This document shows, piece by piece, positions 8,644 to 25,956 of a stretch of DNA of 64,000 nucleotides (positions are counted from its first letter, which is position 1; the number at the start of each line of letters is the position of its first letter). This DNA is from Winogradskyella sp. (GTDB lineage Bacteria; Fidelibacterota; Marinisomatia; Marinisomatales; AB-629-J13), in NCBI GenBank assembly GCA_964230865.1, contig CAXRJK010000110.1, forward strand, positions 391 through 64,390, read 5' to 3'. The notes under the pieces are model-generated. The model was not told the origin of the DNA and did not search any database. It was given only the letters and a program-made list of their open reading frames with translations. Both the position numbers and the translations under genes were made by a program.

Positions 8644-9063
8644 CTATTCTCCTTGCACTGTTGCAATCAAAGTTCTGCTTTTACTATGATTTCGGTGTTC
8701 GCAAAAATAAATTCCCTGCCAGGTTCCTAAAGCCAGATTACCATTAGAAATGGGAATTGATATTGACGATCCTAAAATCGACGATTTTAAATGTGCTGGA
8801 ATGTCATCGGACCCCTCAAATGTGTGCTGGTAATAGGGTTGGTTTTCTGGTACCATTTGATTGAAGTGAGATTCAAAATCTGATCTAACTGTTAAATCAG
8901 AATCCTCATTAATTGTGAGTGATGCTGAGGTGTGTTTAATAAATAAATGGAAAACCCCCATGCTGATACTATGTATTTCTTCAACTTTCTTTAACACAAG
9001 ATCTGTAATAAGGTGAAATCCTCTTGGATAAGAATTTAGGACAATTGTTTTCTGAATCCACAT
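8644..9063 (-). CDS. YjbQ/UPF0047 family protein (secondary thiamine-phosphate synthase-like)
   Basis: Family motifs are present: KHTSASLTINE, DDIPAHLKSS, LGTWQGIYFCEHR. Length is 139 aa. Confidence 0.85.
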   Translation of the reverse strand: MWIQKTIVLNSYPRGFHLITDLVLKKVEEIHSISMGVFHLFIKHTSASLTINEDSDLTVRSDFESHFNQMVPENQPYYQHTFEGSDDIPAHLKSSILGSSISIPISNGNLALGTWQGIYFCEHRNHSKSRTLIATVQGE

Positions 9064-9065
9064 GA

Positions 9066-9389
9066 TCAGATTAGAGATTTTTCCATTAGTATTCTAGTTT
9101 CAAATAGATTGTCCAATGGGTTTTCGTCTGTAATAAAGAACCCTCTGTTAAGAGAAAACTTAATCATCGTTTTATGTTTTTCTCTTGTTTTCATTCGGAG
9201 GGCAATATATCCATTTTTCACTGCCCATGATTCCTGAAATTCAGCTAATTTTCTGGCAACTCCTTTTTTTCTGAATTCAGGGAGAACGCCCCCCATCCAA
9301 CTGTAAAAACTTCCATCGCTGTAACGTTCATATCCAATTTTAAACCCAGCAGGTTCATTTTTATATTCAGCTACAAGAGAAAGATGCAT
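9066..9389 (-). CDS. GNAT-family N-acetyltransferase (annotated from first ATG; true start probably upstream, see finding)
   Basis: GNAT motif A region is present (VLPEFRKKGVARKLAEF). The reading frame continues open upstream to 9542 and encodes a GNAT-like N-terminus, but contains no ATG, GTG or TTG. Confidence 0.7.
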   Translation of the reverse strand: MHLSLVAEYKNEPAGFKIGYERYSDGSFYSWMGGVLPEFRKKGVARKLAEFQESWAVKNGYIALRMKTREKHKTMIKFSLNRGFFITDENPLDNLFETRILMEKSLI

Positions 9390-9499: not shown

Positions 9500-10747
9500 T
9501 CAGGTCTTCCTCTCTTTTTTTCTTGCTGCAGGAAAAAGGACATTATTTAGTATGAGACGATATCCTGGAGAATTTCGATGAAGAGATAGGTCAGTTGGAG
9601 GATCTCCTACAAAATGTCGATAATCCTCTGGATCATGACCCCCTAAAAATGCAAAAGCACCCTTCCCAAAGCTTCCGTGAAGATACTTCACCTGATCTGA
9701 TGCAGGATCCTCTCCCATAAGCACGATGTGTTTTTTTATTTTACTTTTGTGAAATCCGGTGGTCTGTCCCATAAATCCTTTTATAGTGAAGACATGATTT
9801 TGAGTCAGCATTGTGGGGACAGGGTCAAACTTAGCTGAAAACTCAAAAAGTGAAAAATAATCAGCTTCTGCACCTCTGGTAATAGGATTGTTGCTGGGAG
9901 GAAAATCAATATCAGAATACTCATACACCATTGGATCGGTCAAAATATTGAAATTTGTAAACGCCAGAGTTTTGGAAAAATCAAGACTGTTTTGGGCCTT
10001 TGGATCAATGGGTGTTCCATCAAACACATTGTGAACTGCATCGAAACCCTCTTCAGCTAATGCTATATCATAGGAATCTGTAGCTGAACACATTGCAAAT
10101 AGAAAACCACCCTGCCCTACGTAATTTTTAATGGTTCGTGCCACTGCCTTTTTCTCTTCATGCACAGATGGGAACCCAAGTTTAAGTGCAAGAGACTCAA
10201 AGTCTTCTTTCTGTTTTATGTACCACAAAGCAGTATGGTAGCTACGGTAGAACTTTCCATATTGACCGGTGAAGTCTTCGTGGTGAAGGTGAAGCCAGTC
10301 AATTTTACTGAGGCCATCGGTCAATACTTCTTCATCCCAGATGGTTTTATATGGCACCTCTGCATATGTCAAGGCAAGCGTAACAGCATCATCCCAAGGT
10401 TGCTTACTGGGAGGTGAATAAATTGCAATTTTGGGAGCTTTTTCCAGGAGAACTATTTCCATATTGTTTCTTTCAATTTCTCCATAAATAGAAAGTACAC
10501 TAGTTCCATCGATTAGCTCAAAGTTAACTCCCCTAAGCCTGCATTCCTTAATGATAAATGGAAATTGATCTATTAGAAAAGCCCCCCCTCTATAATTTAA
10601 TAACCACTCTACATTTACTCTTTCTGTTAGAACATGGAAAGCCACTCCATATGCTTTTAGGTGGTCTTTTTGAGTTAAATCCATAGGGATTAGAACTTTT
10701 TGAGCTAAAATCATAGATAGATTAAAAATGAGAATTATTTTTTTCAT
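9500..10747 (-). CDS. Secreted class-I glutamine-amidotransferase-like (GATase1-like fold) protein of unknown function
   Basis: N-terminal signal peptide (MKKIILIFNLSMILAQ). A nucleophile-elbow-like GGFLFAMCSATD and a downstream FLGGHDPEDY are present. From memory, it resembles FCB proteins often mislabelled asparagine synthetase B or putative GATase. It is the last gene of a tightly packed operon. Confidence 0.6.
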   Translation of the reverse strand: MKKIILIFNLSMILAQKVLIPMDLTQKDHLKAYGVAFHVLTERVNVEWLLNYRGGAFLIDQFPFIIKECRLRGVNFELIDGTSVLSIYGEIERNNMEIVLLEKAPKIAIYSPPSKQPWDDAVTLALTYAEVPYKTIWDEEVLTDGLSKIDWLHLHHEDFTGQYGKFYRSYHTALWYIKQKEDFESLALKLGFPSVHEEKKAVARTIKNYVGQGGFLFAMCSATDSYDIALAEEGFDAVHNVFDGTPIDPKAQNSLDFSKTLAFTNFNILTDPMVYEYSDIDFPPSNNPITRGAEADYFSLFEFSAKFDPVPTMLTQNHVFTIKGFMGQTTGFHKSKIKKHIVLMGEDPASDQVKYLHGSFGKGAFAFLGGHDPEDYRHFVGDPPTDLSLHRNSPGYRLILNNVLFPAARKKERKT

Positions 10748-10753
10748 TTTTTG

Positions 10754-12625
10754 TTAGCTCTTCAGTTGATTTTTTAAACTTCTGATATGGAGTCTCACAG
10801 GCTCTGACATATAGGAATTAGGATAGTCTTCCAGCATTTTATAATAAAATTGTAGTGCTTCATCGGGCCTTTTTCTAAATATTTCATAAATTTCACCTAA
10901 AAGAGTCCATCCTTTATCTGCTGACTTTGTTTCAGTTAATCTCTCAGCTAGAACTTCTGCTTCAGAAATTTGGTTCATTTTCAGATGAACCAATGCCTCA
11001 CGTAAGATAGCCTCTTTGCAGACTAAAGCTTTAGGATAGTTTTCCTGTATAAAAGCAAAGGAAGCTATAGCTTCTGGCAGTTTTTTTTGTCGGAGATAAA
11101 ACTCACCAAAGATAAACATTTTGAATGCACGTTTATCTTCTTCTGTGCCGTTTTGAAAATATGTTGAAATAAAGTTTCTCAGCTCGAGTAGATCATTTAG
11201 ATCATGTGAAACCGATTTTGTACTCTCTATTGATAGTTCGATTAGTTTAAATGCCGTGTCAATTTCTCCTGAATACAGATGGGATAATATATATTGAAAA
11301 CGAAAGTCATTGTTGTGTTTCCCAAACTTTTTAAAATATTTTTGTGCCTCATTCAAATCTCCTTTTGATAGATACATTTCACCAATTCTAAGCTGAATGT
11401 CTTTTTTTAATTTGGCTTTGGAGGGTGATTTTATCGCAGCCCTATATGATTTTAGAGCTCCATCAAAATCACTTAGCATTTTAAACTGAATTTCACCGAG
11501 ACGATGATATGCAGAAGCAGAGAAAGAAGACAGCGGCATGGAGGTAAGTAAAGAATCATACAACTCAAATGCAGAGTCCAATGATTTTACTGATATATTT
11601 TGCTGATGATAAAAGGGATCTTCAAAAAACATATTTTCTCCCAAAAATGAAACAAATGAAAGACTGGGTGATTCATTGGGAATAATATTATCTTCAAATG
11701 TTTTTCCTAGCCCTAACAATGTCTGACCCACAAAGGTGGGAGATGATTGAACGATGTTTTGACTTATAATTGTCTCATAGGTGGCGATAGCCTTTTCATG
11801 TTGGGATTCTTTTCTGAGAGAGTTAGCTAATTCTAACCAGCGATGAACATCTTTATCTGAGGGAAACCCCATATCCTGATGTTGAGAAACTGCCTTTTCA
11901 TATTGCTGAGTTTTGAAAAAAAAGTCTGCAAGCAGAGGACCAAATAATACCAAATCCTTTTTTATCCATTTATTTAAGGTCCCTACAATGAGTTCATGAG
12001 TTTCATTATCATCACTAATTAGTAAAATACGATTAGTGACCATTTTAATTTGCATTGGATGGGATGATAAATAGTTGAGATATTCTTTTAATGCTGTTTC
12101 ATAACTTTTCCTTGAAAAATGATAGTTTGCAATTTCAAGTGAGAGAACAGATGGGTCATTAAACTTTTCTCTTGCCCGGCGGATGAGGGCGTTCGTTTCA
12201 TCAGACATACCAAGCCTTATAAATAGGTAATAAAACTTTTTATAAGTATTTACCACGCCTCCATACTTTTTTTCTGAGATATCCCACTCCCGCTTAGCCA
12301 GTTTCTTGTTTCCGACTTTCCAGTATGCCTCTCCAAGATCTAGATGGGGGTCTATTTGTTGTGGATTTCTGTCTTTATAAGTTTGAATTGTAGATATAAG
12401 CTCATCATATTTTTCATCTCTAGAGTAAATCTTTTTCAGATTTGTGTAGGCTTTCTGATCATGGCCTTTATCAAGGATATCAGAATAAATTGCAATAGCA
12501 TTTTCAATTTCTCCTTTCCGCTCCATCATTCTGGCAGTCTTTAAAGCACCGGAATTATTTTGTCCGTACAAGATTACCAACAAAGTTGATGCAATGGTCA
12601 AAATGAATAGTTTATTCATTTTCAT
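10754..12625 (-). CDS. Secreted TPR-repeat protein
   Basis: Signal peptide (MKMNKLFILTIASTLLVILYGQ). Repeated 34-aa-type A/Y/L helical repeats run throughout (e.g. AIAIYSDIL, GEAYWKVGN, GEMYLSKGDLNEAQKYF). The start overlaps the upstream gene by 14 nt. Confidence 0.75.
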   Translation of the reverse strand: MKMNKLFILTIASTLLVILYGQNNSGALKTARMMERKGEIENAIAIYSDILDKGHDQKAYTNLKKIYSRDEKYDELISTIQTYKDRNPQQIDPHLDLGEAYWKVGNKKLAKREWDISEKKYGGVVNTYKKFYYLFIRLGMSDETNALIRRAREKFNDPSVLSLEIANYHFSRKSYETALKEYLNYLSSHPMQIKMVTNRILLISDDNETHELIVGTLNKWIKKDLVLFGPLLADFFFKTQQYEKAVSQHQDMGFPSDKDVHRWLELANSLRKESQHEKAIATYETIISQNIVQSSPTFVGQTLLGLGKTFEDNIIPNESPSLSFVSFLGENMFFEDPFYHQQNISVKSLDSAFELYDSLLTSMPLSSFSASAYHRLGEIQFKMLSDFDGALKSYRAAIKSPSKAKLKKDIQLRIGEMYLSKGDLNEAQKYFKKFGKHNNDFRFQYILSHLYSGEIDTAFKLIELSIESTKSVSHDLNDLLELRNFISTYFQNGTEEDKRAFKMFIFGEFYLRQKKLPEAIASFAFIQENYPKALVCKEAILREALVHLKMNQISEAEVLAERLTETKSADKGWTLLGEIYEIFRKRPDEALQFYYKMLEDYPNSYMSEPVRLHIRSLKNQLKS

Positions 12626-15600
12626 ATTGATTCATTTCATTTGATTCTTGATTTATTTCATTCATTAGTGATGACCTATTGAGGGCATTAAAATAACGGC
12701 GAATCATGGTCATGTATTCTTGAGTATATCCAGCCTGTAGAGCACGGCTCAATGCTTCGGAAGTAAGGGTAGTTCGCTGACCTAAGTCTTCTGGGAGACC
12801 AGAGGGTCCGGTAAAATTAACATTTTGAACGGCTGTTTCTGCTAAGCGCTCTTCTTTTTGTCCTTTTTGAGTCATAGATTTTTGACTGTCTAACATTCTG
12901 GAAAGAATTCGTTGCTGTCGTTCCTGGGTTTTTCTAGTATATCTTCTTTGTTTTAAATCCTTGATTACTTCGTCCATGTCTTGTCCAATTCCACTCAATT
13001 CTCCCCTTCCTTTGGACCCAGATTGGGTCATTTCTTCCATCAATTGTTGAAGCGATTTTTGTACGCCCTGTTGTTGAGAGAGCATTTTTTGCATCATGGA
13101 CTGCTGCATCCCCGCAGCCATCTGACCTAAGGCTAACTGCATTCCCTGATTATTGATTCCTTGCTGCTGTCCGGACATTTGTTGCATCTGTTGCAGGAAC
13201 TGTTCGTATCCACTTGCAGAACCCCCTGATTGCATTTGTTGTATAGATTGATGAACGCTCAGGGCTGTCTCATTTAATCCTTCCATAGCTAGATCCTGTT
13301 TGTTTTTTGCGGAGGCAGTATTGCGCTCTGCAAGGCGAGAGATAGACTCGTTCATTTCAGCGAAAGCTTTCCCCATTGCTTTTCCTATCTCTGGAGTTAC
13401 GGCAAAAGTTTCACGTGAGAGCTCCATCAGCGAGCTCATAGTTTGAGATAGCTGATCTTTTAATACTTGCTGCTGTCCGGCAAGATCTTTTACCCTTTGT
13501 GAGCTTCTTGATGTGGATGCTGTTTTTTTTCTGAGTTGTTCTTGAGATTTAGAAAGTGAAAGAACATTAGACATCACTTTTTGAAGTTTTTCTACCATTT
13601 CTGCTGATGTTTCCTGTTGAAACTGTTGTTGGATATCCATTGCCATATTTTGTAGTTGTGATAGGCCGGACAACGCAGAATTACTTGAGTTTCGAGAGAG
13701 TTGAAGCTGTTGTTGATTTAGATGTGCTGCTGTATTTTCAATATTCTGTTCAGTAGATTGAGTAATAGAAGATTCTACCATTTCATTTAAAGCCTCAGCA
13801 GTCGATGGACTAAACTCATCTGTGAGCCTTTGTGCTTCATATATTGCAGATTGAATATGATCAAATTCATCTTGAATTCTCAGTTCACTTTGTTCGTGTT
13901 TTAAAAATGTTGAAGCATCACTTTCATTTTCCATTTCCCATAACTCATTATCCAAATGATTCTGCTGTTTGGTTAATTGCTCTAGGCGTTTTGATACCTC
14001 ATTTAGTTTTTGCTCTGCTTGAATTCGTTTTAATATATCCAGAAAGCGATCTACTTCCTGTTCAATCTTGTCCATATTTTCAGCAATTTCAGATAAGGCA
14101 TTTAGCATCTCTTTTGGATTCATTTGATCAAGAATATCCTCAATATTTTTCAGATTAGACAGCATGTCTTCAGAAATAAGCTCATTGACCAATTGATTCA
14201 GTTCATTAAACTTTTCCATTAGCTCAGGGCTGAACAACTGATGTTTATCAACAGATTCCTTCAGTGACTCCATTGTCTCAGCAATATCCTGAAATTCAGA
14301 TAGCTTTTCTTTTGTTTCTTCCAGCATTTTTTTTATGGATTGCTGTTGGTTCCAATCTATTTCAGAAGATTTAATGAGATCGAGATTCACCTCTTCTAGC
14401 TGTTCTTGAAGGATTTCCAGGTCTTCAAGGTTTTCACTCATCTCTTCAATTATCCCCTCCTCTTTTTCTTCCAAACCAAAGAAAAGATCTTCCAAGGAGG
14501 GAAGTCGGGCAACAAAATTTCCAGACAGTGATTTTTTCGGTCCTGAGATCTGATCATTATCATAGAGCTCAAAATGATAGTGAACCTCGTCTTCTGGCAT
14601 GAGCATCAAATCAGACAAATCCCAGTCAAGCATTACAGATTGTTTGGGTTTATCCAAAATTAAATTAGGTACAGTAAAAACGGATATGACGGGGTCTGTT
14701 TCAATATATGCCGGACGTCGAATTTCATATCCAATCTGTAGAGTAGAAAAACCAAAATCATCTTCTACATCTAAATGAATGGGGATTATTTGATTATCCC
14801 CGAGCTCAATAATGGGAGGAGGTTCATACACAGATATCTGTGGAAACAAATCAGGAATAACCTCTAGATGATAGGGAATGGGATCACGATTGGTAATGTT
14901 TCGATTATCATAAAGATGAATGGTAAAAACACCATTTTCCTCTAAAATAAACTCTCCTTCTGCTCTCTTACCTGAAACTACAAGGGGATGATGAAAATCA
15001 TTTATTTTTAAATATGAACGAGACAGCTTTCGGTTAGATGAAAAGTTTACAGATATTGTTGTGCCTTTTAATCCCTGTACACTTGCTTGATTTGCGGATT
15101 GAATTACTGATTTAAGCCCGGAATATAATGGTGGGATAAGGGTAAGAGAAAACGATTTTATGGCAGGGCGGTCTGTGACCATAATTCTGTATTCTGGGGA
15201 GCGCACCTCCTTCCAGCTTTGCCAGAAATGCTCGGCTTTAACAAACGCTTCATAGATATAATCTTTATAAATTTCTTTGAATTTAAAATTATATTTTCCT
15301 AAAGAGTCAACAGATGCTTTTAAAAATAGTTTATCCGTTTTAACTGAATCACTTTCGACCTGTACAATAGGAGTAAGTTCCAGAAACACTGTGTCAGGTT
15401 TTGTTGAGCTGGAGACTATATCTATTTCAGCGTTGTCTCCTCCAAGCAGGTGAATATCTCCCGCTGAGGACCGCAAGTGGTAAGGTTTTGGTGCTTCAAA
15501 AGCATTGTGTGGATGCAGTAACCTGAAAACACTGTATCCCGCGGTGTCATTGAAACCTGAAAACCACACTGTTATAACTAACAGAAAAAAAAGTGTGATA

Positions 15601-16046
15601 TATTTCCATCTTATATTTACAGCAAAAATTGTTTTATGGTTTAGCTGGTCTAGAGATTTTACCACTTTACTTATAAAAGCATGTGTAAGGCCTTTGGATG
15701 AAATGTCGGAGACATCTCTTTCCAGTTGAAGTGCATTAATGACTGAATCTTTTTTTGGAAAAGCCTTACCTCCCAACGTTCTAGCTATATTAGACCACTG
15801 ATAACGACTGACCCTATTTGTTTGTATCAGAAGAACAGTGACTAATAGTCCCGCTATGATTAAAACAAAACACAAGAGAGCTGAACTCGCAACAAACACT
15901 TTAATGGCAGGAGAGAAATAAAAGACACTCTCTGTTCCTATTGCAATGATCAATAACATCAATAGGGCAGTATATCCTTTCCAGAAAAACTGAATAAAAT
16001 CCCGTTTCACTAGAGCATTTCTAAACCGCTTTAACTGATCAATCAT
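12612..16046 (-). CDS. 1144-aa membrane-anchored protein: N-terminal TM hairpin + third TM, beta-rich middle, long acidic coiled coil and Met/Gln-rich tail (possibly DUF4175-like)
   Basis: Hydrophobic segments lie at about aa 25-44, 50-74 and 147-165. A beta-rich, Ig-like-looking region spans about aa 180-510. An E/L/K/Q heptad-rich region follows at about aa 515-900. An M/Q-rich tract (QQMQQMSGQQQGINNQGMQLALGQMAAGMQQSMMQKM) precedes the conserved-looking tail ...YTQEYMTMIRRYFNAL. Confidence 0.7.
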   Translation of the reverse strand: MIDQLKRFRNALVKRDFIQFFWKGYTALLMLLIIAIGTESVFYFSPAIKVFVASSALLCFVLIIAGLLVTVLLIQTNRVSRYQWSNIARTLGGKAFPKKDSVINALQLERDVSDISSKGLTHAFISKVVKSLDQLNHKTIFAVNIRWKYITLFFLLVITVWFSGFNDTAGYSVFRLLHPHNAFEAPKPYHLRSSAGDIHLLGGDNAEIDIVSSSTKPDTVFLELTPIVQVESDSVKTDKLFLKASVDSLGKYNFKFKEIYKDYIYEAFVKAEHFWQSWKEVRSPEYRIMVTDRPAIKSFSLTLIPPLYSGLKSVIQSANQASVQGLKGTTISVNFSSNRKLSRSYLKINDFHHPLVVSGKRAEGEFILEENGVFTIHLYDNRNITNRDPIPYHLEVIPDLFPQISVYEPPPIIELGDNQIIPIHLDVEDDFGFSTLQIGYEIRRPAYIETDPVISVFTVPNLILDKPKQSVMLDWDLSDLMLMPEDEVHYHFELYDNDQISGPKKSLSGNFVARLPSLEDLFFGLEEKEEGIIEEMSENLEDLEILQEQLEEVNLDLIKSSEIDWNQQQSIKKMLEETKEKLSEFQDIAETMESLKESVDKHQLFSPELMEKFNELNQLVNELISEDMLSNLKNIEDILDQMNPKEMLNALSEIAENMDKIEQEVDRFLDILKRIQAEQKLNEVSKRLEQLTKQQNHLDNELWEMENESDASTFLKHEQSELRIQDEFDHIQSAIYEAQRLTDEFSPSTAEALNEMVESSITQSTEQNIENTAAHLNQQQLQLSRNSSNSALSGLSQLQNMAMDIQQQFQQETSAEMVEKLQKVMSNVLSLSKSQEQLRKKTASTSRSSQRVKDLAGQQQVLKDQLSQTMSSLMELSRETFAVTPEIGKAMGKAFAEMNESISRLAERNTASAKNKQDLAMEGLNETALSVHQSIQQMQSGGSASGYEQFLQQMQQMSGQQQGINNQGMQLALGQMAAGMQQSMMQKMLSQQQGVQKSLQQLMEEMTQSGSKGRGELSGIGQDMDEVIKDLKQRRYTRKTQERQQRILSRMLDSQKSMTQKGQKEERLAETAVQNVNFTGPSGLPEDLGQRTTLTSEALSRALQAGYTQEYMTMIRRYFNALNRSSLMNEINQESNEMNQYENE

Positions 16047-16054
16047 AACGATGA

Positions 16055-16714
16055 CTATTGAACCATAGAGTAATAAATAATATTTACCCCCATTTGAAGC
16101 GCTTTCAGTCTAGTTTCTTCTGGATTATTGTGAACCTCAGCGTCTTCCCATCCGTCTCCTAAATCACATTCATATGTGTATAAAACCATTAACCTCTCTT
16201 CGTCAAATATGCCCAGCGCTTGTGGAGGTTTTCCGTCGTGTTCGTGTACTTTAGGCAAGCCTCTTGGAAAGTTGTAGTAAACACTAAAGATGGGGTGATC
16301 AAATGGTAACTCAATAAAATCCCTATTTGGAAACACCCGCCTCATTTCTTCCCTAAATGAGATATCCATACCATAATTATCATCTGCATGTAGAAATGCA
16401 CCCCTAAGCAATGTTCCCCTTATTTTTACTATTTCTTCTTCAGTAAACCTTACATTTCCATGGCCGGTTAGGTATAGATAAGGGTATTGATAAAATTCCT
16501 GATCTGTAGGACGGAAACGAACCTCGTCATCTGCGACAGCTATGTTTGTGTTATCACGAAGAAATTTTAACAAATTTGGGAGGCTGCTGGGGTCACTATA
16601 CCAGTCCCCACCGCCTCCATAGTGAATCCGAGCAATGGTGAAATTTTGCCCATGAACAAAAGTAGTTATAATAAAAGCGATAACACCAAATATAAAAATG
16701 GATCGGTTTTTCAT
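16055..16714 (-). CDS. DUF4159-like secreted protein (GATase1-like fold family associated with Bat/aerotolerance-type loci)
   Basis: Signal/anchor sequence MKNRSIFIFGVIAFIITTFVHGQ. Blocks RIHYGGGGDW..DP, YPYLYLTGHG, FLHADDNYG and GDGWED match my recollection of DUF4159. Confidence 0.6.
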   Translation of the reverse strand: MKNRSIFIFGVIAFIITTFVHGQNFTIARIHYGGGGDWYSDPSSLPNLLKFLRDNTNIAVADDEVRFRPTDQEFYQYPYLYLTGHGNVRFTEEEIVKIRGTLLRGAFLHADDNYGMDISFREEMRRVFPNRDFIELPFDHPIFSVYYNFPRGLPKVHEHDGKPPQALGIFDEERLMVLYTYECDLGDGWEDAEVHNNPEETRLKALQMGVNIIYYSMVQ

Positions 16715-16821
16715 TGTGAGTTTCTATGGTTTTTATAAATAAAGGTTCCTTTTTATCATTCATTTATTGCATAAAACTAGAAAAGCAGACATCTTTAACC
16801 TTAATAAAATTAACATTGTAG

Positions 16822-17940
16822 TTAGAGGAGGTGGGCATATCGAACTAGAAACACAACTTCCTGAGATATTACTTTTATAACTCCAGCTGTTGGTACAGCA
16901 AAAAGCATTCCCAGGGGTCCCACAACGGTCCCACCTATAAATAGTGAAATCATAACAAGCATGGGATGAAGGCCCACACTTTCTCCTACCAAAACCGGAG
17001 TAATAAAATTGTTGTCGATTTGCTGTACAATTACAAACATCAGAATAATATCAAAAATGAAAAACGGGGACGGAACTAAATTAAACATGAGGTGAGACAA
17101 AGCAGATTCGCTACCTAAATTATTCATTATAGCGATAAGGACAGCAGGGACCATTCCCACAAAAGGCCCTACCATGGGGATTAAATTAGAAAGCCCAGCA
17201 ATTATTGAAATAAATACAATCAGTGTAAGGTTAGCTCCATACAGATTTAATATAAACAGCCCTATAAATGATAAAATCGCAACACTAGAAGCAGCTAGAA
17301 ACTGTCCGGTTAAATATCGGGACATTTGCATCTCTATATTGTGTATGATTCTCACACCCACCTCAAAATATTTATTGGGTACTAGGGCAACCAAGGTTCG
17401 ACGGAAATGATGATATTCAACGAGCAAAATAAATGTAAAAACAAGGATTATGGCGGTCAGAAAAATAAAATTCACACCGCTTTTTGCGATTGAAAGGATC
17501 TGTTGTATAAATCCCGAAATAAAAGTTTGTATTCTCTCGGCTAATTGAGGAGTTTCTCCATCACTCATTGATGAAAACCCCGGAAGAGATGAAACAGTAC
17601 TTTCGTACATACTATTTAAATCATTTACATAGTTTTCCTCAGTGAGTCTAAAATAAAACTCAGATGACTGCTGAAACATTCCGGAGGCAAAACCAAAAAG
17701 AAATCCAAAAACTAATATAAGGACTCCGCTCATAACAAAAAATGTACTGAACAATCTACTGTTTATCTTTCGCTCTAAGGTATCTACTGCAGGGAGGAGG
17801 ATTGTTGTAATAAGAAAAGCAAAGACAAGAATCACTACCATTTTTGATATATAGGGCCAGGCAAAATAAACCACACAAACCCCAAGGATAAAGATGGTAA
17901 GGGTATAAAACTTTTCTACAGTTTGTAACTTGGAAGTCAT
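16822..17940 (-). CDS. AI-2E family transporter (PerM/UPF0118)
   Basis: Polytopic membrane protein of 372 aa with about 8 TM segments. It carries the family block NLIPMVGPFVGMVPAVLIA and a C-terminal GPLGMLFAVP. Confidence 0.85.
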   Translation of the reverse strand: MTSKLQTVEKFYTLTIFILGVCVVYFAWPYISKMVVILVFAFLITTILLPAVDTLERKINSRLFSTFFVMSGVLILVFGFLFGFASGMFQQSSEFYFRLTEENYVNDLNSMYESTVSSLPGFSSMSDGETPQLAERIQTFISGFIQQILSIAKSGVNFIFLTAIILVFTFILLVEYHHFRRTLVALVPNKYFEVGVRIIHNIEMQMSRYLTGQFLAASSVAILSFIGLFILNLYGANLTLIVFISIIAGLSNLIPMVGPFVGMVPAVLIAIMNNLGSESALSHLMFNLVPSPFFIFDIILMFVIVQQIDNNFITPVLVGESVGLHPMLVMISLFIGGTVVGPLGMLFAVPTAGVIKVISQEVVFLVRYAHLL

Positions 17941-24240: not shown

Positions 24241-25956
24241 TTATGGAATCTTACCTACATAAAAGTTAAACAGTAAATCCTGACCAAAGTCTGGTTTAAA
24301 TTCATGGATAGTATCGCCTGAGGTGGTTAAGAATCTTATTTGTCCGTTTATTCCGACCTTTTCCGGTGCGCTGTTTCTGTACCACCAGTGTCTGGAGATA
24401 CCATCTTCCATGTCATCTTTGAACAAAAATTGATAGAAGCCTTTTTTCAGCTCTATTGGAAAATAATATTCAGTGGAATCTTTGAAACTATCTTCTGCAA
24501 AAAGTACTCTTCCTTTTACATCAGATAGGGTGAAGGAGTTTTCCTGCGCTCTGTTCACATTGTTTGTATGGATATAGAGAGTGAACTCATGGGGGAATTC
24601 TTTCGGTAGTGGTACCGTGGATGTAAGTCTATTGTTTTGGGGGTTTTCATCCTTTTGATCATTGGGGCGTTTTGCCAGAACTTCAAAAGATTGATTTTTC
24701 TTTAATCCTTTCCACTGTGGTATAGAAAGAACTATCTCTTCTTCTTCAAGAAACAATAGATTTCCTGACCAATTATAAATTGATTTTTTTCCATTTTTCA
24801 GTCCGTAATGAAATTTCACAGTTTTTAGATCATACTCACCGGAATTTCTGATGAGAACCCTTGGGTTGGCTAATGTTGGATTGATCCGACTGTATTTATC
24901 TTCACTGCTGGGTGCAATTATCTCTACAATTTCAACGTCATTTTTAAAGTTAGGTTTTCCGTAACTGACGAGCTGGTGAGACATGCGGAGGTTTCCGTTT
25001 CTTTCTCCGTTGTCAAAATAATTTTGAACGCTGTAATCCAGATAAATTGTATCTCCGGGGTTTACATAGGGAGTCAGCTCAAATTCGTATTCATCCACTT
25101 TGGTACCCGGACACCAACCGGCCCTGTCAAAGGGCCAAGTTCCGCCTTGAGGATAAATAGGATTATTCCCGCAGTCCTTCCACACATTCCAACGAAAGAC
25201 TTCCCAGTTGTTTAGGTACCAGGTGTGGGTTTTGCTGTCCCACTCACAGCAGTTGCGTGGACCCTCATGGCCATGTCCGGAAATGACAGATTTAATTTTA
25301 TATCCTGAAGCATCAGCGTTAAGTATGATCTTCTTTTTTGTAAAAACAGAGTCATCGGCAAGTTCTTTATATTTATAATTTCCATAGGGATAAATATTTT
25401 CTACGCTCAAAATATTCCTCTCAGGTTCTCCGCTGATGAACAAGAATTTCAGATCCAGTAATTCCTGATTGTTACCTACGATGAGTTCACGGTTTCCTCT
25501 TAGGATGGGAGCATAGTCCGTCATATCATATGTCCATTCCCAGCCCTCTTCTCCTCCAAGGAAAAGGCGTTTTCCATAGGGAGTGACAAAACTGCCAATG
25601 CTGAAAGTTTCAGTTGTGTCGCTCTCCGGATTATTAATAAATGTATTCCAAATGTAATCCCATTCCCCGCAGGGATATTTATCGCCTTTGGTTAGAGAGT
25701 CGCACTTTAAAGTCTGAACCATGGTGATCTTTGACCAATTTTCTTCAGTTTTAGGAAATTGAACTCTGGTTTTATATTGGGCGTTCCATCCTTCCGGGCT
25801 GGGTGTTTCAAATGTGATTGGATGCAGTGTTAGAGTGTCAGCACCGGAGGAAGAGGATAGTTGTTCTTCTGTAATGCCGGAACAGCTCATCATGATAAAG
25901 GCATAGGATAAGAATAACCATACTTTAATTAACACTGAATAATATATTATTTTCAC
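24241..25956 (-). CDS. Lipoprotein with PNGase-F-like (peptide-N-glycosidase F-related) domains
   Basis: Lipobox FIMMSC. The blocks ITMVQTLKCD...CGEWDY and SGHGHEGPRNCCEWDSKTH...GWCPG resemble the two jelly-roll domains of PNGase F family proteins (GHG...CxEF/W). The assignment is from memory, with no search done. Confidence 0.45.
   Translation of the reverse strand: MKIIYYSVLIKVWLFLSYAFIMMSCSGITEEQLSSSSGADTLTLHPITFETPSPEGWNAQYKTRVQFPKTEENWSKITMVQTLKCDSLTKGDKYPCGEWDYIWNTFINNPESDTTETFSIGSFVTPYGKRLFLGGEEGWEWTYDMTDYAPILRGNRELIVGNNQELLDLKFLFISGEPERNILSVENIYPYGNYKYKELADDSVFTKKKIILNADASGYKIKSVISGHGHEGPRNCCEWDSKTHTWYLNNWEVFRWNVWKDCGNNPIYPQGGTWPFDRAGWCPGTKVDEYEFELTPYVNPGDTIYLDYSVQNYFDNGERNGNLRMSHQLVSYGKPNFKNDVEIVEIIAPSSEDKYSRINPTLANPRVLIRNSGEYDLKTVKFHYGLKNGKKSIYNWSGNLLFLEEEEIVLSIPQWKGLKKNQSFEVLAKRPNDQKDENPQNNRLTSTVPLPKEFPHEFTLYIHTNNVNRAQENSFTLSDVKGRVLFAEDSFKDSTEYYFPIELKKGFYQFLFKDDMEDGISRHWWYRNSAPEKVGINGQIRFLTTSGDTIHEFKPDFGQDLLFNFYVGKIP

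Follow-up and report, generated by a model that had tools for sequence, protein, structure and literature searches.

A stretch of 64,000 nucleotides from a bacterium deposited as Winogradskyella sp. and placed by GTDB in Fidelibacterota (assembly GCA_964230865.1, contig CAXRJK010000110.1, positions 391 to 64,390; hereafter the window) carries four consecutive genes on the minus strand. They encode a DUF4159 protein (P1), a very large DUF4175-type membrane protein (P2), a tetratricopeptide repeat (TPR) protein (P3) and a protein with the fold of class I glutamine amidotransferases (GATase1; P4). We propose, at about even chances of being right, that the four genes are an operon whose products form the extracytoplasmic portion of an envelope system of the Bat/Cmd type, associated with MoxR and DUF58, and that this operon is split from the ATPase module. 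The recurrent P1-P2-P3-P4 block and its physical linkage to MoxR-DUF58 genes are new here, as is the description of P4 as an extremely conserved exported family that has no sequence model, folds like GATase1 and keeps one Cys and one His invariant. The two DUF families and the Bat/Cmd type of system, which is mechanistically opaque, were already known.

One basis of the proposal is the gene neighbourhoods of P4 relatives. In a scan of a single genome per species, such relatives were encoded at 597 loci or more. The neighbourhoods of the 80 best loci (L001 to L080, with flanks of up to 10 kb) were annotated from six-frame open reading frames (ORFs), using hidden Markov models (HMMs) made from the window proteins and their relatives. 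The six-frame translations of the window and of the 80 loci were also searched by phmmer with the MoxR, DUF58 and BatA proteins of Gemmatirosa as queries. Among the 80 loci, MoxR/DUF58 matches were found in exactly three, all from Latescibacterota, and in all three they come after P4 on the same strand. In L035 the gene order is PriA, a PorZ-like propeller protein, P1, P2, P3, P4, MoxR (AAA_3), DUF58 and suf genes. In L025 it is P2, P3, P4, a HEAT/PhyH protein, MoxR, DUF58 and suf genes. In L014 it is P4, MoxR and MurD, and the upstream place of P1-P3 is occupied by an integrase and a methylase, which suggests that insertion of a mobile element displaced part of the block and left P4-MoxR intact. 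The inserted genes of L014 (chromosome OZ242311.1, 2782-7707) encode an Eco57I/TaqI-type restriction-modification (RM) methylase and a phage-type integrase. L025 also encodes, a few genes past MoxR-DUF58-sufB, a protein with a PycTM (Pycsar effector) domain (16390-16941).

A second linkage was found on plasmid 1 of Gemmatirosa kalamazoonensis (NZ_CP007129.1, about 731.7-756.4 kb; L082), one of two records matched when P1 was compared with plasmids by tblastn, the other being pCRULAC1. This cluster consists of genes for a TPR/Peptidase_MA protein, a DUF4159 protein, MoxR (AAA_3), DUF58, a BatA_N (TIGR02226) protein with a von Willebrand factor A (vWA) domain, and a giant of 1268 amino acids. 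Its DUF4159 protein is a P1 homologue (27% identity, tblastn E 7e-13; Pfam DUF4159, E 1.3e-44). Its giant is a P2 homologue (P2 HMM, E 8e-81; BLASTP, E 9e-20, colinear over aa 281-649), and is colinear with P2 in the immunoglobulin (Ig)-like and helical parts. The TPR protein is encoded upstream in the cluster, and P3 shows no specific similarity to it. The two loci differ in that P4 is absent from the Gemmatirosa cluster and MoxR, DUF58 and BatA/vWA are absent from the window, and in that the P1 and P2 homologues lie at opposite ends of the Gemmatirosa cluster, whereas P1 and P2 are adjacent in the window.

In one phylum, a classical MoxR-DUF58-BatA cluster is therefore bounded by homologues of P1 and P2, and in Latescibacterota MoxR-DUF58 are joined to the complete P1-P4 block. 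From these two linkages, the block appears to supply the half of a MoxR-associated (Bat/Cmd-type) system that lies outside the cytoplasm, and the ATPase half looks to be unlinked, or lost, in Marinimicrobia. The original prediction, made from the letters of the window, had described an undescribed and self-contained envelope machine: the first part stands, as the unit is real, whereas the MoxR(-DUF58) genes that follow P4 in three loci and those flanked by P1 and P2 homologues in Gemmatirosa make it probable that the unit is not self-contained.

The block itself is widely conserved. All labelled loci among the best 80 belong to phyla of the Fibrobacteres-Chlorobi-Bacteroidetes (FCB) group, and P4 was found in Marinimicrobia, Calditrichota, Latescibacterota, Ignavibacteria, Kapabacteria, Krumholzibacteriota, Eisenbacteria, Zixibacteria, Cloacimonadota and Bacteroidota. 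With strict thresholds, P1-P2-P3-P4 are colinear in 12 loci, which come from Marinimicrobia (L001-L004, L006, L007), Krumholzibacteriota (L026, L066), Latescibacterota (L035) and unclassified genomes (L032, L061), together with L016. Three loci have the block with a divergent TPR gene (L025, L052, L058). Two have P2-P3-P4 with P1 not seen: L012, which is at a contig end, and L030, where a gene of the PorZ-like, C25 peptidase or CHU_C/Por_Secre_tail kind is inserted between P2 and P3. Depending on how strictly it is defined, the block thus recurs at least 12 to 17 times, in Marinimicrobia, Krumholzibacteriota, Latescibacterota, Eisenbacteria and unclassified metagenome-assembled genomes. A lack of conserved synteny had been named beforehand as an argument against the original prediction; the 12 colinear loci are the opposite result.

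P3-like genes (cluster C1) adjoin P4 in about 40 loci. P3-P4 only were found in 14 loci (Calditrichota, Ignavibacteria, Balneola and one Marinimicrobia), with an upstream flank long enough to exclude P1-P2. P4 alone was found in 23 loci from Flavobacteriia, Sphingobacteriia, Kapabacteria and others (26 before L025, L052 and L058 were moved to the group with a divergent TPR gene). Because P3-P4 occur without P1-P2, and P4 also alone, the four-gene block, which is real and old, is made of two separable pairs, P1-P2 and P3-P4. In the Ignavibacteria-type loci (L022, L029, L031, L033, L036, L044, L049, L056, L062, L072) clpX lies between P3 and P4, all on one strand, and this P3-clpX-P4 order is stable in 10 of 10. 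Three contigs (L007, L023, L030) are labelled 'uncultured Lentisphaeria' or 'uncultured Alphaproteobacteria' and encode a P4 that is 60-70% identical to that of the window. L007 has the full block, L030 most of it, and L023 P3 alone, about 4 kb upstream of P4; these labels are probably taxonomic errors at the level of the bin.

Several described systems share components with the block. In Rhizobium leguminosarum, cmdA-cmdD (RL3499-RL3502) encode a MoxR-like ATPase, a DUF58 protein and two membrane proteins (PMC5700661), and the summary given there of earlier work (Vanderlinde 2011) reports envelope and morphology defects in cmdA-D mutants. A genetic partner of cmd is TtpA, a periplasmic TPR protein of 621 amino acids in Brucella (bioRxiv 10.1101/551135). 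The cmd system resembles the block in its MoxR/DUF58-linked membrane proteins, and TtpA matches P3 in size and location; it differs in that it belongs to alpha-proteobacteria and not to the FCB group, and in that P2 does not reach the TIGR02302 model. CmdC and CmdD are presumably the TIGR02226/DUF4159 and TIGR02302/DUF4175 proteins, and the cmd operon is not known to encode a P4-like protein. In Rhodobacter sphaeroides, the CenR envelope regulon includes a TIGR02302 (DUF4175) gene, RSP_0730, and a MoxR gene, RSP_1024, at separate chromosomal positions (PMC9275681). In Azorhizobium, deletion of a TIGR02302 gene alters exopolysaccharide (Sato 2016, as cited in PMC6842974). By analogy with the phenotypes of these alpha-proteobacterial relatives, the system of the window may have a role in envelope maintenance.

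The Bat operon of Bacteroides, which has homologues in spirochaetes, encodes MoxR, DUF58, BatA/BatB with vWA domains, the TPR proteins BatC/BatE, and BatD; no mechanism has been established for it (PMC5700661; see also PMC3557215). Such clusters combine a MoxR AAA+ ATPase and a DUF58 protein with large anchored extracytoplasmic proteins and TPR proteins. The window has the last two kinds and lacks MoxR, DUF58 and BatA_N/vWA; in Pfam, P1-P4 have no BatA_N, vWA or BatD domain. DUF4159, DUF4175 and P4 are not known to be part of the B. fragilis operon.

In the window, the coordinates of the four ORFs (Table 1) give a gap of 8 nucleotides between P1 and P2, an overlap of 14 nucleotides between P2 and P3 and a gap of 6 nucleotides between P3 and P4, identical to the values of the original prediction. 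The latter also held that every product is exported or membrane-anchored. Hydropathy (Kyte-Doolittle, 19-residue window, threshold >= 1.6) agrees: P1, P3 and P4 each have one N-terminal hydrophobic segment, with a K/R-rich n-region and small residues before Q, which looks like a Sec signal peptide, and P2 has transmembrane (TM) helices. Because the arrangement is conserved across phyla, the block is not a chance assembly; the idea of a single conserved and co-oriented unit, with exported or membrane members and no described function, is supported.

Promoter-like and terminator-like sites that would split the unit were sought: the count of the former was below the shuffled expectation, and that of the latter was within about one standard deviation of the shuffles. 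The presumed promoter region is the AT-rich stretch upstream of P1, where sigma-70-like matches are weak (the G+C content of the window is about 37%). A PADLOC search for a defence-system origin gave 0 matches for P1-P4. Downstream of P4 there is a spacer of 110 nucleotides, and in the region that follows (8644-9389) the gene directly 3' of P4, on the same strand, is YjbQ/UPF0047-like. Genes of this kind occupy the same place in Marinimicrobia and Calditrichota, at some loci together with a small GNAT-like gene, and lie near P4 in Flavobacteriia too (L001, L002, L003, L009, L011, L020, L060, L079), the YjbQ and GNAT labels being read off the sequence. The unit may continue past the four genes.

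Table 1. Features of the four-gene unit in the window (positions are those of the window; aa, amino acids; AF2, AlphaFold2 model)
Feature	Position	Strand	Basis
AT-rich intergenic region, 107 nt, 5' of P1; presumed promoter region of the unit	16715..16821	-	inferred
P1, exported DUF4159 protein, 219 aa	16055..16714	-	ORF, Pfam, hydropathy
P2, inner-membrane-anchored DUF4175-type giant, 1144 aa	12612..16046	-	ORF, Pfam, conservation
P2 TM hairpin, two helices, aa 17-80	15807..15998	-	hydropathy
P2 third TM helix, aa 140-165	15552..15629	-	hydropathy; absent from the original prediction
P2 three tandem beta-sandwich (Ig/macroglobulin-like) domains, aa ~190-515	14502..15479	-	AF2, Foldseek, conserved columns
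P2 E/Q/L/S-rich segment, 1% Pro, aa 521-930 (~410 aa)	13257..14486	-	composition
P2 low-complexity segment, Q 26%, G 14%, M 12%, aa 931-1030	12957..13256	-	composition
P2 conserved C-terminal module, aa 1031-1120	12687..12956	-	alignment conservation
P3, exported TPR protein, 623 aa	10754..12625	-	ORF, Pfam; start overlaps P2 stop by 14 nt
P4, exported, N-terminal alpha/beta domain + GATase1-like core, 415 aa	9500..10747	-	ORF, AF2, Foldseek, alignment
P4 Cys220 codon (A-M-C-S-A)	10088..10090	-	translation, AF2, alignment
P4 His371-Asp372-Pro373-Glu374 (GGHDPED)	9626..9637	-	translation, AF2, alignment

P1 had been called DUF4159-like, and it matches the Pfam family over its full length (PF13709, E 2.7e-64; 216.9 bits where the cut-off is 25.9; all 202 profile positions aligned), in agreement with a precomputed family assignment. 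Its hydrophobic segment covers aa 4-24. The motifs TGHG, ADD, HEHD and DLGDGWED are invariant or nearly so in the alignment, which contains no Cys. The family belongs to the GATase1-like clan, and 'ADD' occupies the place expected for the nucleophile. In our literature search DUF4159 was essentially unstudied, its mention being confined to the Pfam paper. P1 would be soluble and act as a partner in the periplasm; its GATase1-like fold lacks the nucleophile, and its conserved His/Asp/Glu clusters suggest ligand or metal binding.

A DUF4159 gene is also present on the second plasmid matched by P1, pCRULAC1 of 'Corynebacterium crudilactis' (NZ_CP015623.1; L081), where it lies beside a dihydrofolate reductase (dfr) gene at 11968-13155. 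It is 88-99% identical to proteins of Flavobacteriales (Crocinitomicaceae/Taishania). Both genes are within an IS26/IS6/Tn3 mosaic that carries the resistance genes aph, sul2 and aac(3). The stretch looks like a captured fragment of a flavobacterial chromosome, which is possibly the source of the dfr gene.

P2 matches DUF4175 above the cut-off, as had been expected (PF13779, E 1.4e-10; 40.3 bits, cut-off 27.3); the aligned part is limited to aa 305-481, which correspond to positions 192-363 of the 825 of the profile. Hydropathy confirmed the TM hairpin announced for this protein and added a third helix. The N-terminus is basic (K6, R7, R9, K14, R15), suggesting an N-in orientation, and the loop that precedes the third helix (aa 76-139) is K/R-rich. 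By the positive-inside rule, these two features place aa 166-1144 in the periplasm, a topology that we infer from the sequence. An AF2 model of aa 166-530, made with database homologues as input, has three tandem beta-sandwich domains (pLDDT 86.6), and the Foldseek matches of this ectodomain model are generic, namely tandem Ig/macroglobulin domains. In the Ig-like region, the motif DDFG is invariant and 'DND..SGPK' is mostly conserved. The segment aa 521-930 is presumed to be a helical or coiled-coil stalk, from its composition; it gives weak Rad50/SMC-type matches, as coiled coils usually do. In the C-terminal module, the mean top-residue fraction is 0.55-0.56 per block of 40 residues, a value that is higher only in aa 481-520 (0.57).

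Across phyla, P2 is conserved from end to end at 20-50% identity. Its layout, with TM helices in aa 17-80 and 140-165 and the Q/G-rich segment aa 931-1030, agrees with the TIGR02302/DUF4175 architecture of the TIGRFAMs description, with two to three N-terminal TM helices and a long extracytoplasmic tail that contains Gln/Gly-rich low complexity. Sequence searches of PDB chains, with the single sequence or with a profile, returned nothing meaningful for P2, and the publications matched in a literature search on DUF4175 concern Acinetobacter AdvA, which is related through the N-terminal TM part only. The accession numbers of the families turned up no more than two passing mentions in the literature.

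P3 has matches to TPR_6, TPR_14, TPR_16 and other TPR families of Pfam. It is far under the cut-off of the named TPR families of NCBIfam (PrsT, YbgF, BamD, PorW and others).

P4 has no family in Pfam, NCBIfam or PADLOC, no match to GATase or peptidase C26/C56 sequence models, and no relative among PDB chains by single-sequence or profile search. Its own family is large: over 8000 homologues were counted in 90% clusters, and clustering at 50% identity gave 1522 groups. The closest relatives come from Marinimicrobia (Neomarinimicrobiota/Fidelibacterota, SAR406) of marine metagenomes. The AF2 model of P4 is of high confidence (pLDDT 89.2, pTM 0.89), and its best fold matches in the PDB are all GATase1-like domains, as the original prediction had it: STM3548 (2gk3), the middle domain of GH42, galacto-N-biose/lacto-N-biose (GNB/LNB) phosphorylase, lin1909 (3fij) and SpuA (7d53), with Foldseek E-values of 2.7e-5 to 8e-4 and probabilities of 0.99-1.0. 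The model of P4 thus combines a core resembling GATase1 with insertions and with an additional alpha/beta domain at the N-terminus.

The motifs FAMCSATD and GGHDPED, singled out beforehand as possible parts of an active site, are both present in the P4 translation. In the model, Cys220 is at the junction of strand 215-219 with helix 221-231, which is the position of a nucleophile elbow, and His371 follows strand 363-368, the place of H-P-E in GATase1 enzymes. Conservation was measured in 64 full-length homologues from genomes of about 10 phyla, with identities of 57-78%: Cys220, His371, Asp372, Pro373, Glu374, His156, Glu157 and Asp158 are kept in all 64, and His155 in 63. Cys220, His371 and an acid are therefore, from the model and the alignment, a candidate catalytic triad, whose acid is outside the canonical H-P-E register (HDPE instead).

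Compared with GATase1-like proteins such as SpuA/PuuD (gamma-glutamyl-polyamine hydrolase), lin1909 and STM3548, P4 shares the core fold, the placement of a Cys where a beta-strand gives way to a helix, and a His-x-Pro-Glu motif that follows a late strand. It differs from them in being exported, in the lack of a synthase partner, in its extra N-terminal domain and long insertions, and in having no sequence-level similarity to them. HHalign of P4 with P1 gave a 16-column match, a helix and a 'GGFLxA' strand before the elbow, with a probability of 23%, which is compatible with a common fold and is no evidence of homology.

The same fold would also suit a set of four purely structural proteins, in which P4 is a binding or oligomerisation module and its Cys and His are structural or bind metal. 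Several of the best fold matches, GH42 and GNB/LNB phosphorylase, are non-catalytic, P1 has no nucleophile within the same fold clan, and the acid of P4 is out of register. Its extreme conservation across phyla speaks against such a module, as does an invariant Cys in a small-x-Cys-x-small strand/helix elbow combined with an invariant His, which is typical of active sites. In addition, the Cys is lost in a few divergent homologues (it is replaced by Asn in P0145), as happens in pseudo-enzyme offshoots. A structural role of all four proteins is, in our opinion, improbable.

Many P4 homologues are named 'asparagine synthetase B' in NCBI records. If the name were correct, P4 would be this enzyme or another glutamine amidotransferase of central metabolism, and its clustering with P1-P3 would be incidental. 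Neither an asparagine synthase domain nor an N-terminal nucleophile (Ntn)-type glutaminase domain was detected in P4 with Pfam or NCBIfam, it has an N-terminal export signal, some homologues carry type IX secretion tails, and the synteny with P3 is kept in about 40 loci. The glutaminase domain of AsnB is of the Ntn type (class II), and its fold is different from that of GATase1. The name is a propagated mis-annotation, and we give virtually no credence to a role of P4 in central metabolism.

The secretion tails raise another alternative, a module of the type IX secretion system (T9SS), in which P1-P3 would be FCB-specific accessories for the export or anchoring of P4, itself a cargo of the system or an enzyme of the cell surface. 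The divergent homologues P0123, P0124, P0129, P0132, P0133 and P0139 end in Pfam Por_Secre_tail; in this subgroup the sorting domain is appended just after a K-x-K-T motif related to the C-terminus of the core group. Among the labelled loci of the best 80, the P4 family was found in FCB-group phyla only, which is the range of T9SS. Chosen upstream neighbours were analysed with Pfam and identified as SecDF, PriA, a C25 peptidase, a propeller of the PorZ-like type and proteins with a T9SS tail. Some blocks adjoin the propeller, the peptidase or CHU_C/Por_Secre_tail proteins, and P3 has a very weak match to PorW/SprE (E 9e-4; 17.9 bits, the cut-off being 250). On the other side, the P4 of the window, which ends in KKERKT, and the 64 core-group homologues, all ending in KKxxKT, have no C-terminal Por_Secre_tail or CHU_C sorting domain, and a sorting tail marks a cargo and not a component. 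P1-P3 are under the cut-off of every T9SS component model, the T9SS-type neighbours vary by locus, and no core T9SS gene was identified among the window ORFs (ORF list, and Pfam on unassigned ORFs). A T9SS module is thus very unlikely.

A number of observations weigh against a MoxR/DUF58-associated system with P4 as its enzyme. First, the absence of MoxR, DUF58 and BatA/vWA from the window, already remarked upon in the original prediction, was found again with the ORF list, with Pfam on unassigned ORFs and with phmmer. Second, the flanks of all loci but the three Latescibacterota ones, of 10 kb at most, hold no phmmer match to MoxR, DUF58 or vWA, and homologues of BatA are missing from L001-L080 as well as from the window. 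As MoxR/DUF58 genes are missing from most flanks, the system may work without the ATPase in most of these phyla. Third, in Flavobacteriia P4 follows dnaB, and the DUF4159 gene is separate, after holA-rsmE; P4 and DUF4159 being unlinked there, beside housekeeping genes, their physical partnership is not universal. Fourth, P2 covers about a fifth of the DUF4175 profile, and TIGR02302, the full-length model made for alpha-proteobacteria, does not match it at E <= 0.1; this model does not match the Gemmatirosa giant either. Last, the Foldseek TM-scores of P4 are low (0.28-0.35 on the query, about 0.5 on small targets), and many GATase1-like domains are non-catalytic, including the GH42 middle domain and DUF4159 itself.

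The absence of the ATPase genes is what would be expected of a self-contained, ATPase-independent periplasmic complex in Marinimicrobia, the proximity of MoxR-DUF58 elsewhere being optional or ancestral. The upstream neighbours scanned with Pfam, which are unrelated and different at each locus, and the unlinked RSP_0730 and RSP_1024 genes of R. sphaeroides fit with such independence. Evidence against it is that MoxR(-DUF58) comes after P4 in the three Latescibacterota loci, even where integrase and RM genes have taken the place of P1-P3, and that P1 and P2 homologues bracket MoxR-DUF58-BatA in Gemmatirosa. Moreover, absence from flanks of this length is silent on the rest of the genome. We consider ATPase independence possible, and on the whole doubtful.

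If the four genes do encode the extracytoplasmic part of a MoxR/DUF58-associated system, the products could be arranged as follows. P2 would be a scaffold whose three helices fix it in the inner membrane, with three Ig-like domains and a helical, Q/G/M-rich stalk of about 600 residues in the periplasm; its predicted cytoplasmic loop (aa 76-139) would be the only part able to contact a cytoplasmic MoxR/DUF58 module. P1 would join it as the periplasmic partner. P3 and P4 would be an output pair specific to the FCB group, in which P3 serves as a TPR adaptor that positions or presents P4. P4 itself would most likely have a component of the envelope as its substrate and work as a Cys-His hydrolase, amidase or transferase. 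A more specific proposal, which we put forward tentatively and hold to be rather unlikely in its full form, is that P4 founds a new exported Cys-His enzyme family with GATase1 fold, the catalytic output or client of MoxR/DUF58 systems of the Bat/Cmd type, and that the DUF4175 stalk, the DUF4159 protein and the TPR protein deliver or activate it in the envelope.

Elsewhere in the window, a gene on the minus strand (24241-25956) encodes a 571-residue protein with the C-terminal domain of peptide-N-glycosidase F (PF09113, E 2.2e-16), which is unusual in a free-living marine bacterium. The N-terminus of this protein is hydrophobic and followed by a Cys, so that it is possibly a lipoprotein.

Clusters of MoxR and DUF58 with membrane partners (Bat, Cmd) are present in many phyla and are associated with envelope, stress and virulence phenotypes for which no mechanism is known. 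The locus described here and its relatives form a recurrent DUF4159/DUF4175/TPR/P4 set, joined in one phylum to MoxR-DUF58, and include a candidate enzyme. If P4 proved to be the catalytic output or client of these systems, it would give them their first testable biochemical activity, and as P4 homologues are present in cultivable and tractable Bacteroidota (Pedobacter L077, flavobacteria), the hypothesis is directly testable. The analysis also corrects the widespread name 'asparagine synthetase B' for a family that comprises about 1500 clusters at 50% identity and is covered neither by Pfam nor by NCBIfam. In Marinimicrobia, which are uncultured and abundant in the ocean, it marks out a conserved piece of envelope biology.

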